DNA of 64,000 bases. Source: Parcubacteria group bacterium. GTDB lineage: Bacteria > Patescibacteriota > Minisyncoccia > SW-4-49-11. Each line of letters begins with the position of its first letter. The first letter of the stretch is position 1. The stretch is from contig CALRBF010000001.1 in assembly GCA_943354045.1 (NCBI GenBank), forward strand, positions 259,860-323,859, written 5' to 3'. The translations under genes were made by a program, and so were the position numbers. A model generated the notes under the pieces. The model was not told where the DNA came from and did not search any database. It saw only the letters and a list, made by a program, of their open reading frames with translations. Shown one piece after another: positions 53,560 to 60,996 of this stretch.

Positions 53560-54189
53560 CTATCCCAAATGAGCATGGTCATTCCAAGTAACTATTTTCC
53601 AATCCTTTTTTATTTCGTCAAATTGCATCCATACAATACCCGTATTACTCATAATAAAGTTATCTGTGATAATTTTTGCCTCTTTTGGTGTAACATTAGA
53701 ATCAAATAGTCTATACCAGATAAGACAATGCAGAAAATTTTTATGGGTTACAATAATAATATTGTCTTCCTTCCTAGACTCGATAAATTCAAATGCTTTT
53801 TGGGCTCTTTGTTTTAAATCCTCAAAATTTTCTTCATCAGAATGTCTATAACTTAATATTTCCCAATTATCTGCAATTGCTTTATCTATAGCTTTTAATT
53901 CTTCCAGCTCTTTACTCTTTTCTTCTTGAATAGATGGTCTTTTTCTTTCTCTAAATAATTCATTCTTCTCAATAGGTAAATTCACTGTCTTAGATATATA
54001 TTCAGCTGTTTCATATGCCCTCGTATAAGGACTTGATATCAGTAAATCAACTGTAATATTACTTAACCGCCTAGACGTTGTCTGCGCTTGTTCATGACCT
54101 AATTCAGACAATGGGATACTCGCCGATTGATATACCCTCAATGTATTTCCCTCTGATTGCCCATGGCGTACAAAATATATATTTTTCAT
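53560..54189 (-). CDS. Histidine phosphatase family (phosphoglycerate mutase-like) protein
   Basis: 'MKNIYFVRHGQSEGN' RHG motif. The ORF-track N-terminal extension to 54240 reads through the tRNA-Ala 3'-end duplicate and is rejected. Confidence 0.7.
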   Translation of the reverse strand: MKNIYFVRHGQSEGNTLRVYQSASIPLSELGHEQAQTTSRRLSNITVDLLISSPYTRAYETAEYISKTVNLPIEKNELFRERKRPSIQEEKSKELEELKAIDKAIADNWEILSYRHSDEENFEDLKQRAQKAFEFIESRKEDNIIIVTHKNFLHCLIWYRLFDSNVTPKEAKIITDNFIMSNTGIVWMQFDEIKKDWKIVTWNDHAHLG

Positions 54190-54190
54190 A

Positions 54191-54320
54191 TGTGGACCTG
54201 ACTGGGATACAAACCAGACTGGTAGTCTTGGGAAACCCACGGTTTCCCAACCTTCCTAGACAGGAAACTCCCGTTTCCCGACCCCTTCCCAACTGGCTCG
54301 ATCATTTGTTTAGTTAATAC
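54191..54320 (-). mobile_element. Miniature insert 3' of tRNA-Ala: partial tRNA 3'-end duplicate (18-nt exact direct repeat) plus a conserved two-hairpin GC-rich module
   Basis: 'tgtggacctgactgggat' at 54191-54208 and 54321-54338; module 'ggaaacccacggtttccc...ggaaactcccgtttcccgaccccttcccaactggctcgatc' shared with 57187-57300. Confidence 0.5.
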
Positions 54321-54322
54321 TG

Positions 54323-54395
54323 TGGACCTGACTGGGATCGAACCAGCCACCTCCTCGGTGCAAGCGAGGCGCTCTACCAGATGAGCTACAGGCCC
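54323..54395 (-). tRNA. tRNA-Ala (anticodon TGC)
   Basis: Reverse complement 'gggcctgtagctcatctggtagagcgcctcg cttgcac cgagg aggtg gctggttcgatcccagtcaggtcca'. Confidence 0.85.
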
Positions 54396-54451: not shown

Positions 54452-55360
54452 CTAATTTAGATTTGTATGGGTAAAATCTAATAACTGGAAGTTATTTTCT
54501 TGAATATATTCTGGTGTCACTGTATACAATACTGGTGCAAAATTTGTCGTAACATATTCTGTAGACTGTATTTTGCCATTTACTCTACACTCCTTCAAAA
54601 TTTCATTATATCGAAAATATATATCGCCCCTTTTTACAAAACAATGATTTTTTTCAATAATATGGTATTTTTCTGGAATTCTTTTTGTGGTTAGAACTTG
54701 CCCCTTAAGATGTGTGTCTGTAAGCCATATTTTTAATTGAAGAGGTTGATTTGATATATTTTCTAACTTTAGATCAATAAAATTATATAATATCGTAGCT
54801 CCACCACCAAAAGGTAATGTTCTCCCAGAATCAGGAAAAACGTCCATGGAATGATGATATCTCTCTATAGTTTGCATTGATGTGTGTAAAAATATCCAGT
54901 ATAAAAAATTAGAGAGCTGACATAGTCCTCCCCCTAAACCTGGGATAACCGCCCCGTTTGCAAGTAACATTCCATCTACATATCCTTTGTCATATGTGGG
55001 TTTCCCAATCAATTTCCATAAAGAAAATATTTTTCCCGGCTCAATAACTACTCCATCTAAATGTTTAATTGCCTGTTTAAGATTAGTTATCTTTTGTTCT
55101 TGTAACTCCAAGTCACTATCACCAAGCCTCCTCCTAAGTACCGATTGATGCCGCGCAACTACCATTGGCAAAAAATCTTCCGTCTGATAACATCGTATTT
55201 TAGAATCTAAAATATTAGATATCGTACGAGATGTATGTCTTACAAATAAAATTGGCTTTTGAATAAAAGGATATTGTTTTGATAATGCAGTTCTCTTTGG
55301 CGACTCATATTCTGTTAATAATTTTTGTACCTTACTCCACAAGTCTCCTGGCTCATCCAT
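54452..55360 (-). CDS. VanW-like protein
   Basis: 302 aa; 'GGGLCQLSNFLYW' resembles the VanW-domain G-G-G-x-C-Q motif. Confidence 0.5.
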   Translation of the reverse strand: MDEPGDLWSKVQKLLTEYESPKRTALSKQYPFIQKPILFVRHTSRTISNILDSKIRCYQTEDFLPMVVARHQSVLRRRLGDSDLELQEQKITNLKQAIKHLDGVVIEPGKIFSLWKLIGKPTYDKGYVDGMLLANGAVIPGLGGGLCQLSNFLYWIFLHTSMQTIERYHHSMDVFPDSGRTLPFGGGATILYNFIDLKLENISNQPLQLKIWLTDTHLKGQVLTTKRIPEKYHIIEKNHCFVKRGDIYFRYNEILKECRVNGKIQSTEYVTTNFAPVLYTVTPEYIQENNFQLLDFTHTNLN

Positions 55361-55495
55361 ATAATATAATATAATTTATATTATATTATATTATATTTTA
55401 TACTACATCACCAGTATACTTATCCACATTATTCGTGTTCGACAGTATCAGCCGTCCCTAAATAAAAGAGAGAAGTATAACTCCTCTCTTTATTT

Positions 55496-55772: not shown

Positions 55773-57104
55773 CTACTTATTTTGTAATATTACTTTTAAT
55801 ACCTCATCTTTGTCAGAAGTTAGGGTAAATAATTTTTCATCTTCCAGCTTAATAGTACCATATTCATGAACAAATACTTTGTCGATATATTCTACTAATG
55901 GCCACCAAAACTCAGTGTCAAAGAGTATAAGAGGAGTTTTATCTACTTTATGTGTTTGTACTAAGGTTAATACCTCAAATAATTGATGCAGGGTTCCAAG
56001 CCCTCCCGGACAAAACAAATATTGATTAGTAGGTCCTGTTAATATAAATTGCCGAGTAAATGGAAATCTAAAATGAATAGAATCACTTACATAATTATTC
56101 ATTGTTTTTCCCGCCTGATGCAAAAGAGTTGCAAAAGCTGGTTTTCCGGCTTCTGCAGATGCTTTATTAGCTGCTTCTGCTATACCAAAACCACCTCCTG
56201 TAAGAATACTAAAGTCATATTTGATTAATTCCTGTGCAATAACATAGGTATCCTGATAATAGTGACTATCTTGTGAAACTTTATTACTTCCGAGTATTGT
56301 CACATTTTGGGATAAAGACTCAAGAAACTCAAGCCCCTCTACTAATTCCGCCATTATACGAAATATTCGCCAATTCACACTAGCGATAGCAGTACTATTG
56401 GATGAAGTAGCTAATATATTAGGATAATCCTCTGTCTTACTAATAATTTCAAAGGCTTCTTCGGCAGTCTCTACTATATGTATCATTTCTAAATCCTCAG
56501 CTTTTATGGCCCCAAGTACAGAATGACAAGTGTTTCGTAAAAATTGTATCAGAGGGTTCCAGAAGTCCTGTCCTACCAAAATAACGGGAACTCTTTGCAT
56601 AAAGCCAAGTGCCATTTCATTTAATACTTGAAATAATTCATCTACAGTTCCATATCCCCCAGGAAAATAAACAAAAGCCTGAGAAGGACTTGTAAGCATA
56701 ACTTTACGAGTAAAGAAATAGCTAAAATTAACCGAATCAGTAACATAAGAATTGATACGCTGTTCCATAGGAAGTTCAATCCCGAGCCCAATAGAATCGC
56801 CTTTTACTTGAAAAGCTCCACGATTGGCAGCCTCCATAATACCAGGTCCTCCTCCTGTAATCACCGTATAATTATTGAGTCCTAATAATTCCCCTAATTT
56901 ACGTGCTTTTATATAATATTGATCATCTTCATGAGTACGGGCTGAGCCAAATATCGTAACTTCATTTTTGTATTTTGCCATCAAATCATAACCCTCTACA
57001 AATTCTGCCATTACCTTGAATAATTTCCAAGAATCTGTTTGGGCGAGCTTATAGGGAGCTCCTATGGTGTCTTGAAGAGTTTTGAGTTTTTCGGTATATG
57101 CCAT
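55773..57104 (-). CDS. Tandem LOG-family (TIGR00730, cytokinin-riboside-5'-monophosphate phosphoribohydrolase-like) protein
   Basis: Domain 1 'GGGPGIME' + 'PGGYGTVDE'; domain 2 'GGGFGIAE' + 'PGGLGTLHQ' (E to Q). Confidence 0.75.
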   Translation of the reverse strand: MAYTEKLKTLQDTIGAPYKLAQTDSWKLFKVMAEFVEGYDLMAKYKNEVTIFGSARTHEDDQYYIKARKLGELLGLNNYTVITGGGPGIMEAANRGAFQVKGDSIGLGIELPMEQRINSYVTDSVNFSYFFTRKVMLTSPSQAFVYFPGGYGTVDELFQVLNEMALGFMQRVPVILVGQDFWNPLIQFLRNTCHSVLGAIKAEDLEMIHIVETAEEAFEIISKTEDYPNILATSSNSTAIASVNWRIFRIMAELVEGLEFLESLSQNVTILGSNKVSQDSHYYQDTYVIAQELIKYDFSILTGGGFGIAEAANKASAEAGKPAFATLLHQAGKTMNNYVSDSIHFRFPFTRQFILTGPTNQYLFCPGGLGTLHQLFEVLTLVQTHKVDKTPLILFDTEFWWPLVEYIDKVFVHEYGTIKLEDEKLFTLTSDKDEVLKVILQNK

Positions 57105-57137
57105 AATTTTGTTTTGAATAATTGAGGGGGGGGGTAT

Positions 57138-57324
57138 TCGATTTCTGGTTTTTTACTCGTTTACGGGGGTGTCTCCGATTGGGATCTCAGTCGCTATAGC
57201 TCCTTGGAAACCCACGGTTTCCAACACTCGGAGTAAACTCCTCGCTGCCTTCCTTCACGGGGAACTCCCGTTCCCCGACCCCTTCCCAGTTCGATCCTTT
57301 AATTATTTACTTTTAATTAATATT
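57138..57324 (-). mobile_element. Miniature insert 3' of tRNA-Arg: 49-nt exact direct repeat of the tRNA 3' end plus trailer, enclosing the conserved two-hairpin GC-rich module
   Basis: 'tcgatttctggttttttactcgtttacgggggtgtctccgattgggatc' at 57138-57186 and 57325-57373; module 'ttggaaacccacggtttccaac...ggggaactcccgttccccgaccccttcccagttcgatcc'. Confidence 0.55.
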
Positions 57325-57356
57325 TCGATTTCTGGTTTTTTACTCGTTTACGGGGG

Positions 57357-57430
57357 TGTCTCCGATTGGGATCGAACCAATAACCTACAGCTTAGAAGGC
57401 TGTTGCTCTATCCAATTGAGCTACAGAGAC
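57357..57430 (-). tRNA. tRNA-Arg (anticodon TCT)
   Basis: Reverse complement 'gtctctgtagctcaattggatagagcaacagc cttctaa gctgt aggttattggttcgatcccaatcggagaca'. Confidence 0.85.
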
Positions 57431-57750
57431 GATATACAAAAGCATTATAGCAAATATGATTGGTTTTTACAAATAAAAAAAGCCCCGACAAATGCGGGAG
57501 CTGATAGTGGTGTGGGGAGACTCATCAAGGAAAAAATTTGCCCCCCCTTATAAGGCCATAGTGCAATAATCAGAGTTATTATTAAGATTATAATGGAAAA
57601 AAACCATTTGTAGGAGCTATAGCAACAACTAAAACTGCTCCAGCCACAATGGTAATGCCTCGACGGAACATAGCACAAAGCTGAGAAAAGTTCATGGGAA
57701 AATTACAGTAACCACACAAATAGTACTATATTTTTCAAAAATATCAATTT

Positions 57751-59975: not shown

Positions 59976-60272
59976 CTAGACTTCTCGAGGCATATCCTTG
60001 AGGATACGCTCGCGGGAAGATAGAGCTCCTGGTCTCAAAGATTCCATACAGTCAAGAACTGCTTGACTCAACCCCACCAGAAAATTTATCCCTTCGGGAC
60101 TCAACTCCTCAGAGAGAGGCATCTCGGGGTCCATCGGGTCCATCGAATCAATGAGGTCTATGGCATCAGTAGCCTCTGGAATCACAAAATTTCGATCAAC
60201 AAAGGCTTCGAGCGCTCGCTCGGCAAACCCTTCATTAAGTGCAGAGTCTAACTCTTCTTGGGAAATGGACAT
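59976..60272 (-). CDS. Small acidic protein (paralogue family member 1), GC-rich
   Basis: 98 aa, D/E/P-rich; consensus promoter 17 nt upstream; paralogous context to 62132..62281. Confidence 0.45.
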   Translation of the reverse strand: MSISQEELDSALNEGFAERALEAFVDRNFVIPEATDAIDLIDSMDPMDPEMPLSEELSPEGINFLVGLSQAVLDCMESLRPGALSSRERILKDMPREV

Positions 60273-60597: not shown

Positions 60598-60996
60598 TCA
60601 TTGATAAAGATTTATAAATCCTTCTTTTACTTTAGCAAAATCTATTTCATTCAAAGACCCCATTTTGTTATGCCGTCTCCTATAATCAATTGTTCTGACC
60701 TGCTGTAAACAAGCTGTTATTCTCTTACCTTGATATTCATAGGCCACATACCAAGTACCTGTTTTATTTTTGGTAGTTGTAGGAATAACCAAATATGTCC
60801 ATTTACTTAATCTTTTTAATATAATAACTGGTCTAGAAAACTTATCTCCCTTACCGCTGACTTCTGTTCCAATATTCTCTCCTAATTGACACCACCAAAT
60901 ATCTCGTTCTTTGACAAATGGAGCTTTGTGATTACTTTTATCTAACTTAGATTTTAATACTAACCATTCCTTAAATCTTTTGATAAATTTTTGCAT
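60598..60996 (-). CDS. MazF/PemK-family endoribonuclease toxin-like protein; no antitoxin ORF evident
   Basis: 'ERDIWWCQLGENIGTEVSGKGDKFSRPVIILKR...YLVIPTTTK' matches the MazF/PemK core; surrounded by repeats. Confidence 0.55.
   Translation of the reverse strand: MQKFIKRFKEWLVLKSKLDKSNHKAPFVKERDIWWCQLGENIGTEVSGKGDKFSRPVIILKRLSKWTYLVIPTTTKNKTGTWYVAYEYQGKRITACLQQVRTIDYRRRHNKMGSLNEIDFAKVKEGFINLYQ

Follow-up and report, generated by a model that had tools for sequence, protein, structure and literature searches.

The tRNA-Arg locus and its direct repeat

The 64-kb window, i.e., the whole stretch of DNA that was analysed, contains a tRNA-Arg gene whose 3' end is present twice, and the question is what the short segment between the two copies represents. 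The repeat search of the window revealed an exact direct repeat of 50 nt (57137-57186 and 57324-57373), one nucleotide longer than given in the initial annotation, with a spacing of 187 nt. A chance origin of a 50-nt exact repeat in 64 kb is impossible. The insert reported between the repeats is present (57187-57323), its length being 137 nt and not 138 nt.

The intact tRNA-Arg(tct) gene is encoded on the minus strand and was delimited at 57355-57430 by ARAGORN and at 57357-57430 by Rfam (RF00005, 71.1 bits). A promoter-like site, TTGTAA-17-TGnTATAAT, was matched just 5' of this gene (57444-57472, minus strand) in a consensus scan, and the same scan detected no terminator-like site between tRNA-Arg, the element and the downstream ORF of the LOG family. 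Repeat copy 1 (57324-57373, minus strand) extends from about position 57 of the T-loop to the 3' end of the tRNA and through a 31-nt trailer; it thus comprises the last 17-19 nt of tRNA-Arg, starting from GATCC in the T-loop. In the tRNA sense and on the same strand, it is followed by an AT-rich spacer (57298-57323), by a segment designated IR-L (GGATCGAAC(T), 57288-57297), the reverse complement of the tRNA T-loop, by a conserved structured module (57187-57287) and by repeat copy 2 (57137-57186), a displaced pseudo 3' end of tRNA-Arg with its trailer. IR-L and repeat copy 2 form the 5' and 3' strands, respectively, of a closing stem, P1, which is short here (GGAUC/GAUCC). Copy 2 lies 32 nt upstream of the start codon (57104) of the LOG-family ORF (55773-57104), which is downstream of the element in the tRNA sense.

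The module is delimited by its covariation, its fold and a covariance-model match, and all its parts are on the minus strand: a core 23-mer (57265-57287), a GNRA hairpin P2 (57258-57277), a purine linker GAAGGAAGG, an optional hairpin P2a (about 57225-57247), a hairpin P3 (57204-57224) and a P4 motif GGAGC..GCGAC (57187-57203). Both perfect hairpins described earlier are present, GGAAACCCACGGTTTCC at 57206-57222 and again at 54231-54247 (0.04 matches expected by chance) and GGGGAACTCCCGTTCCCC at 57259-57276. Three matches of the 17-mer hairpin to giant-virus MAGs (19-26 bits) look unrelated.

The second copy at tRNA-Ala

The recurrence of the module 3' of tRNA-Ala, also part of the initial annotation, was recovered by the covariance model. 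This second copy is located behind an intact tRNA-Ala(tgc) gene (54322-54395, minus strand; ARAGORN and Rfam). The model scored 81.8 bits for the Arg copy (match 57200-57297) and 78.5 bits for the Ala copy (match 54225-54300), with the rest of the window at 10.2 bits or below. The Ala copy is likewise bracketed by a tRNA 3'-end repeat (TGTGGACCTGACTGGGAT, 54191-54208 and 54321-54338), which had gone unnoticed before, so that an insertion at a tRNA gene bracketed by the duplicated 3' end, as first proposed, applies to both window loci.

All features of the Ala locus are on the minus strand. Repeat copy 1 (54321-54338, 18 nt) starts in the T-loop and overruns the tRNA end by 1-2 nt. IR-L (GATCGAGCCAGTT, 54291-54303) pairs with the pseudo T-arm at 54209-54222, as judged from sequence and fold. 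The module has a short form without P2a (54223-54290), including the core 23-mer (54268-54290), P2 (54261-54280) and P3 (54230-54248). The displaced pseudo 3' part of tRNA-Ala (54191-54222) is composed of a segment identical to the tRNA-Ala end (54191-54208) and a degenerate T-arm (54209-54222), and it stops 1 nt before the ATG (54187-54189) of a histidine-phosphatase ORF. The two window copies are apparently co-transcribed with the tRNA and the downstream ORF.

Distribution of the element family

The 23-nt core GGGAAGGGGTCGGGRAACGGGAG, given on the tRNA-sense strand and common to both window copies, was found by an exact-pattern scan in more than 117 loci, 117 being a lower bound with one genome taken per species. 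This search of relatives for the module, as suggested in the initial annotation, gave loci nearly all titled Patescibacteria or CPR, mostly MAGs, with a few under other labels. The groups bearing the core include Saccharibacteria, Parcubacteria/Paceibacteria, Moranbacteria, Kaiserbacteria, Berkelbacteria, Uhrbacteria and others. Several genomes contain two to three core copies; viral contigs gave no core matches. The covariance model, R1, was built from 85 copies. It adds about a dozen more diverged copies inside the 117 loci, has just two matches in the 64-kb window and gave one weak match in 544 kb of unrelated CPR-like contigs.

A tRNA gene on the same strand ends 16-120 nt upstream of the element in 81 of 120 copies, and an antisense tRNA was found in none of the 120. 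The host tRNAs belong to 19 amino-acid types. Some of the other copies are at a contig edge, behind another element copy or at a non-tRNA target; the copy in locus L022 has as its host an intron-containing tRNA that ARAGORN does not call. Tandem or second element copies were observed in four loci (L025, L063, L065 and L113). An exact flanking repeat of at least 10 nt is present in 66 of the 77 analysable copies (median 17.5 nt, range 10-55 nt). Within these 66, the repeat starts at T-loop position 57-60 in 49 copies and ends 0-10 nt past the discriminator in 57.

The possibility that the module is a known tRNA-associated structure, which the initial annotation had raised against itself, did not materialise. 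With Rfam 15, the gathering score was reached in the window by tRNAs alone, and a permissive search (E up to 10) of both window copies and of the variant copy in L021 gave no credible family over the module. Sequence resemblances to tmRNA, SRP RNA and RNase P RNA are superficial, with no model match. Literature searches by concept and by core sequence found no matching paper. The element family is apparently undescribed, being absent from Rfam 15 and the searchable literature.

Anatomy and fold

On the tRNA-sense strand, the folded element spans about 100-170 nt and the unit 100-190 nt overall, with a conserved core of about 75-150 nt. Its parts follow the order tRNA, spacer (often with a terminator-like hairpin), IR-L, core/P2, linker, P3, 3' domain and IR-R. 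IR-L comprises, in reverse complement, the local T-loop, the T-stem 3' strand and 0-8 nt of the acceptor 3' strand, and it nearly always ends in ...ATTCGAAC. Non-palindromic T-loops are inverted in it as well (TTCAATC gives an IR-L of GATTGAA), and IR-L is therefore a genuine inverted copy. The left flank of the element is fixed at ...TCGAAC. The core begins with GGGAAGGGGUCGGGAAAC-GGGA-GUUUCCCG, and P2 (CGGGAAAC-GGGA-GUUUCCCG), with its GNRA loop, is a hairpin invariant across the family. It is followed by the purine linker GUGGAGGAAGG, where some copies have an extra hairpin, by P3, in which a variable outer stem surrounds AAACC-GNG-GGUUU, and by a small 3' domain of the form GGAGC..GCGAC or ..CGAGCAGUGAG. 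IR-R consists of a T-loop-like remnant and then the T-stem 3' strand, the acceptor 3' strand and a little trailer of the tRNA. P1, formed by IR-L and the displaced target copy, is locus-specific and closes a multi-helix junction. The core also contains four G-tracts, and a G-quadruplex reading of these would compete with the covarying P2 hairpin.

Several lines of evidence support this structure. Matched IR-L/IR-R duplexes have a mean energy of -20.0 kcal/mol vs. -15.7 kcal/mol for mismatched ones (Wilcoxon p = 2.7e-13), and the pairing is slightly better on the sense than on the antisense strand (p = 0.03). In the MAFFT alignment, 8 double changes from AU to GC and 11 G:U cells were counted in P2, and the P3 outer stem is altered on both sides in many sequences. 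Over the MAFFT and the model-fitted alignments, the G:U cells of P2 number 11-12 on the tRNA-sense strand; the other strand would have A-C mismatches in their place. In the model-fitted alignment of 107 copies, which leans towards structure because it was fitted to the covariance model, 92.4% of the P2 and P3 cells pair, and double changes occur in 10 of 17 pairs (134 cells). None of 500 shuffles matched the observed P2/P3 pairing, and sliding the partner columns abolished the signal. In the displaced copy of L109, two C-to-T changes leave P1 paired as G:U. Folded as single sequences, L017, L021 and L098 reach z near -5, and their long P1 encloses a three- or four-way junction. The window copies fold less well (z of -1.2 for Arg and -2.4 for Ala), and their P1 is weak, the L005 orthologues having about -7 kcal/mol and the window Arg copy pairing by the above five-nucleotide strands alone. 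The element is a conserved, strand-specific folded element. Covariation, together with G:U pairs confined to one strand, thus supports the remark in the initial annotation that the module could also be a small RNA.

Conservation in a sister species and history of the repeats

Locus L005, a Parcubacteria MAG, represents a sister species in which both insertions are found at the same two tRNAs. Compared with the window, the element (148 nt) is 96% identical, the tRNA-Asp/His block 89.5%, the LOG gene 77% and the 5' part of the histidine phosphatase gene 63%. The spacers and promoter regions are far more diverged than the module; the Arg spacer (57298-57323), unlike the module, has five changes and an indel. 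With 96% identity in the module against 63-77% in the ORFs, the module evolves like a tRNA and not like a scar. Judging from these comparisons, the element is under strong purifying selection. The reading of the insert as the scar of an excised element does not agree with these values or with a core invariant across the phylum.

In L005, the two Arg trailer copies are unlike each other, and those of the window are identical and resemble copy 2 of L005. Since the insertion is shared and the L005 trailers have diverged, the exact repeat in the window reflects later homogenisation and not a recent insertion. Both window copies are old and vertically inherited.

Empty sites, protein-gene targets and cargo

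Empty sites, which the initial annotation had proposed to look for, were found at two tRNA genes. L121 carries the closest LOG ortholog in metagenomes (57% amino acid identity), and its tRNA-Arg(tct), 36 nt upstream of LOG, has no element. Conversely, an additional, third copy is present in L005 behind tRNA-Asp; its duplication of 44 nt comprises 9 nt of the tRNA and the terminator, and the tRNA-Asp of the window is without an element.

In L109 and L064, the target of the element is a protein ORF, presumably an H+-pyrophosphatase gene, and the element lies within the 3' end of this ORF. About 100 nt are duplicated through the stop codon, so the ORF stays intact. The two gene-end copies differ synonymously in 13 codons and non-synonymously in 2 in L109, and in 10 and 7, respectively, in L064; copy 2 is orthologous between the two loci. 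The pattern seen for the Arg repeat of the window recurs here: within each genome, a block of about 40 nt is identical in both copies, and 7 of its sites differ between the genomes. A foreign origin of one of the L109 gene-end copies was considered; old duplication, decay and local gene conversion explain the data equally well.

Cargo-bearing versions were found in L024 and L073, where the tRNA-end repeats are 1.8 kb apart and the cargo ORFs, on both strands, are situated between the tRNA and the module, with the module distal. L024 carries an ORF of the inositol-monophosphatase family and one of the 2H-phosphoesterase family; L073 carries three ORFs, and the one scanned has no Pfam match. The initial annotation had asked for copies attached to an integrase with cargo: cargo of about 1.8 kb was indeed found, with no integrase in it. 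Its suggestion that the shared module is an end sequence characteristic of the insertion is supported. A common rule emerges from these data: the element is found at the distal end of an insertion into a gene's 3' part, and the interrupted gene is always made whole by a second copy of its end. Since many related loci have a terminator hairpin separating the tRNA from the element, the element may not be transcribed in all of them. Neither circular or excised forms nor any very recent insertions were seen.

Neighbouring genes and the search for an enzyme

No integrase (including the Phage_integrase domain), transposase or reverse transcriptase was detected among the window ORFs at 33.5-64 kb or in the scanned cargo of L024 and L073. 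Most of the window ORFs scanned have housekeeping roles (PNPase, MutS, MutL, DnaJ, NrdR, CofD, SpoU and RbfA); a MazF-like toxin is also encoded. Among the recurrent neighbour clusters listed for the 117 loci, neither TnpA nor TnpB was found, and the top 30 of these clusters contained no tyrosine integrase.

Small GIY-YIG genes recur near the element, with 17 matches in 850 kb vs. 3 in 544 kb of control loci. A GIY-YIG gene is directly upstream of the element-bearing tRNA in about 10 of 81 copies, and there is none in the window. Several of the GIY-YIG genes inspected interrupt tRNA genes in their turn, the 5' part of the tRNA gene being duplicated. Large serine recombinase genes are present in four related loci, and an ORF with a LAGLIDADG-like motif and no Pfam match is present in five; neither occurs in the window. 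A composite element, in which a GIY-YIG gene, a tRNA and the module are inserted together in an older tRNA, fits L020 and L061. It was rejected as the general case because just 13 of 76 loci have a similar tRNA 5' piece upstream, several of these pieces being mere neighbouring tRNAs.

Interpretation and alternative explanations

The explanation we favour, with a probability somewhat better than even, is a new Patescibacteria-wide family of small structured insertion elements that replace gene ends, chiefly at tRNAs. Such an element lies in the 3' part of a gene, almost always at T-loop position 57-60 of a tRNA gene and always in the orientation of the gene. Upstream of it, the displaced gene end is present as a working copy, so that the tRNA stays intact, and a second copy persists as a pseudo-fragment directly downstream of the element. 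Most likely, the folded single strand, either RNA or sense-strand DNA, would act in cis as the site of homing or site-specific integration by an enzyme encoded elsewhere, with P1 offering a duplex copy of the target beside a conserved protein-binding or catalytic core. The unit may carry cargo or none. At a new site, IR-L and the target copy might stem from an attP-like copy that the element carries, from a long duplication at a staggered cut or from later palindrome extension. Several observations weigh against this explanation: no enzyme was found in the window at 33.5-64 kb or in the cargo, the copy number is low, copies at the same tRNA are common to different species, and P1 is weak in both window copies. 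Moreover, the invariance of the core across the phylum and its tRNA-like conservation suit an RNA useful to the host at least as well.

The latter possibility, a host-beneficial structured non-coding RNA gene made in the tRNA transcript, with mobility that is ancient and incidental, is judged unlikely, although it draws on much of the same evidence: the 96% identity set against 63-77% in the adjacent ORFs, the covariation and one-strand G:U pairs, the GNRA tetraloop and multi-helix junction, the low copy number (two copies in the 64-kb window, a single weak match in 544 kb of unrelated CPR DNA), and the apparent co-transcription of the window copies with their tRNA. In addition, the copies persist despite flanking direct repeats that should ease deletion. 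Its further proposal, that the closing stem mimics the acceptor/T-arm helix and directs processing by tRNA-maturation enzymes, is on the same unlikely footing. A host RNA is hard to reconcile with a host tRNA that varies by lineage over 19 types, with presence or absence that differs between sister species, with tandem or second copies near one tRNA (L025 and L063), with insertion within a protein gene, with cargo-bearing versions and with terminator hairpins before the element in many loci. The single weak match in 544 kb also suggests that many CPR genomes are without the element. This reading overlaps the insertion-element explanation, and the two may coexist. A related and rather improbable proposal is that the core is a new functional RNA, i.e., a ribozyme or the scaffold of an RNA-guided enzyme, with IR-L as its programmable guide in an RNA-directed homing system. 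IR-L would then be rewritten at each locus to be complementary to the 3' segment of the target, and the unit would insert in tRNA T-loops and occasionally in ORF ends, replacing the displaced gene end.

Two further readings have a low probability each. A SINE-like retroelement acting via target-primed reverse transcription, with a precise nick in the T-loop and a variable second nick past the tRNA end, would account for a repeat with one boundary fixed in the T-loop and the other variable (10-55 nt), for an orientation that is strictly that of the tRNA and for the RNA-like conserved structure. It is considered very doubtful, as is the companion idea that the nicks would generate the long variable target-site duplication and snap-back synthesis would make IR-L, even though IR-L and the repeat do both copy the local sequence, whether at one of 19 tRNA types or outside tRNA genes. 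The element has no linked reverse transcriptase, and group II introns were not found in a published survey of Patescibacteria (PMC13011429). Cargo of 1.8 kb with ORFs on both strands is hard to fit to a small RNA intermediate, and the repeat ends cluster at the functional end of the gene, that is, at the stop codon in L109 and at +1 to +5 in tRNAs. Equally low is the probability assigned to tyrosine-integrase attL/attR remnants of the CIME type, or to scars left after deletion of island cargo. The direct repeats do run from the T-loop past the tRNA 3' end, as in T-loop-class integrase sites, a class that Williams reportedly described in 2002; the cargo versions are bounded alike, and large serine recombinase genes occur in four related loci. 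Nevertheless, no tyrosine integrase was seen near any inspected copy, the core had no matches in viral contigs, and one core serves 19 tRNA types and ORF targets, whereas integrase families are site-specific. The module shows purifying selection with RNA-type covariation, and att scars are normally without an inverted copy of the target. An intron spliced from the T-loop to the displaced copy was also considered and rejected: the boundaries break group I rules, and terminators often intervene.

If the favoured explanation is confirmed, a phylum-wide, tRNA-linked structured element has been missed by the current RNA-family libraries, and many "partial tRNA" repeats in CPR genomes would be explained. 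With the element as a marker, insertions and small islands can be traced at the tRNA genes of organisms with tiny genomes; its repeats and pseudo-tRNA ends can mislead the annotation and binning of CPR genomes. The question raised is how a non-coding unit of about 100 nt gains inverted and direct copies of its target, and which enzyme reads the core.

Comparison with known systems

The element is similar to tRNA-integrating elements, islands and CIMEs in its insertion in the 3' part of a tRNA gene, which is kept intact by a second copy of the end, in its direct repeats starting from the T-loop and in having versions with and without cargo. It differs from them in its size (100-190 nt), in the covarying strand-specific folded core and in the inverted target copy at the inner boundary. 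The direct repeats of tRNA 3' ends expected of these systems are present; a cognate integrase was found neither in the window at 33.5-64 kb nor in the listed neighbour clusters, the L024 and L073 cargo or the viral contigs, and in place of one or a few target tRNAs, a single core is associated with 19 tRNA types and an ORF. The attL/attR signature of a tyrosine recombinase, by which the initial annotation had explained the repeat, is consequently not supported by the window at 33.5-64 kb, the cargo versions or the range of targets, the last including a protein gene.

With MITE, REP and RPE sequences the element shares a small, non-coding, hairpin-rich and intergenic character, and the window copies appear co-transcribed with their neighbours. 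Differences are its strict target and orientation specificity, the phylum-wide conservation of the core, a terminal inverted repeat derived from the local target in place of an element-specific one, a long and variable duplication (10-55 nt) in place of a short fixed one, and a low copy number (two in the 64-kb window, with one weak match in 544 kb) in place of many dispersed copies. The MITE-like alternative of the initial annotation was abandoned on these grounds. Traits of the PATE and REP sequences derived from IS200/IS605 were also noted, namely two similar hairpins, a strand-specific structure and the fixed left flank; those sequences are without target duplication, and the element has clear target duplications.

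Group I introns are common in the tRNA genes of Patescibacteria. The paper on these introns concerns those of the anticodon loop. The module, at just about 100 nt, gave no RF00028 match in either window copy, and true group I introns were detected elsewhere in related loci.

Homing-endonuclease cassettes with a replacement gene end (Allomyces atp6; T4 SegB in a tRNA gene cluster, PMC2330249) are alike in that an essential gene is interrupted and its displaced terminus is supplied or duplicated. In related loci, GIY-YIG genes inserted in the same tRNA genes show the mirror-image (5') duplication. The element itself differs in having no ORF, and GIY-YIG genes accompany only the minority of copies mentioned above, with none in the window.

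The CTX-phi attP(+) hairpin (a Xer-dependent IMEX) and integron attC are folded single-strand recombination sites whose enzyme is encoded elsewhere. By analogy, the element would correspond to them in its two inverted target-like arms about 70-130 nt apart, in a stem that imitates the double-stranded target, in bulges near the presumed crossover and in a structure confined to one strand. A locus-specific P1 and strand asymmetry are observed in the element. The targets are dif or attI in those systems and the tRNA T-loop here; the sequence between the arms is unconserved there, whereas in the element it is the most conserved part.

Variants of the Module and Its Host Genes

Two related loci carried cargo-bearing versions of the module, the conserved folded element found 3' of tRNA genes in Patescibacteria: L024 (minus strand) and L073 (209-2100). 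Their tRNA 3'-end repeats lie 1.8 kb apart, and the module is placed at the distal end in both. In L024, where the cargo reaches some 1.8 kb upstream from the module, one enclosed ORF belongs to the inositol-monophosphatase family and the other to the 2H-phosphoesterase/2'-5' RNA-ligase family. Three ORFs make up the L073 cargo between the repeats; the one scanned had no Pfam match.

The host gene is not always a tRNA. Module copies were found inserted in the 3' end of an ORF reading like H+-pyrophosphatase (L109:930-1240 and L064:6910-7240), with approximately 100 nt of the coding end duplicated as far as the stop codon. Over their initial ~40 nt, the two gene-end copies are identical within each genome and different between genomes, which points to their concerted evolution. 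At L022, a group I intron (Rfam RF00028; 4761-4971) was located within the tRNA immediately upstream of a module copy. This tRNA was not detected by ARAGORN, indicating that some module copies recorded as having no tRNA are associated with intron-containing tRNAs.

Surroundings of the tRNA-Arg Element in the Window

The ORF downstream of the tRNA-Arg element (55773-57104, minus strand) encodes a double LOG/SLOG-type fusion protein that contains two stretches of the Lysine_decarbox family; its relatives, with identity of up to 57%, are encoded on many CPR metagenome contigs. The stretch that separates the displaced tRNA-Arg repeat from the start codon of LOG contains a homopolymer tract within the 5' untranslated region: nine consecutive G (57126-57134), which read as C9 on the coding strand. 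A perfect AT-only palindrome, ATATAATATAATATAA / TTATATTATATTATAT (55359-55401), is located upstream of a VanW-like ORF. The window also contains a PemK/MazF-like toxin ORF (60601-60996, minus strand), and the small ORF upstream of it (59979-60272), for which no Pfam match was found, could encode its partner.

Nested Hairpins and GIY-YIG Genes

Pseudo-tRNA pieces and the module both contain recurrent short hairpins rich in GC, which follow the pattern CCGCC-N3-4-GGCGG or are extended forms of it. They occur upstream of GIY-YIG ORFs in L020 (37-66), L061, L103, and L087, and within the optional hairpin of the module in L048, L058, and L086. They look like a distinct tiny insertion or hairpin family of CPR genomes. 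The loop of P3, the covarying hairpin of the module, holds additional nested sequences of ~40-70 nt in L031, L038, L041, and L052 (for example, ...GTGGGCGACC...GCTTTAGC...GAAGTACTCTTGTGG...), which may represent another small insert family.

In L020 (1-420), L061, L103, L087, and L104, tRNA genes are interrupted by small genes for GIY-YIG nucleases of 80-90 aa (Pfam PF01541), with the insertion point in the D-loop, the anticodon loop, or the T-loop. About ten of these GIY-YIG genes lie immediately upstream of a module-bearing tRNA. The 5' part of the tRNA is duplicated on the upstream side of the insertions, and an intact tRNA lies on the downstream side, the mirror image of the 3' duplication observed at the module.
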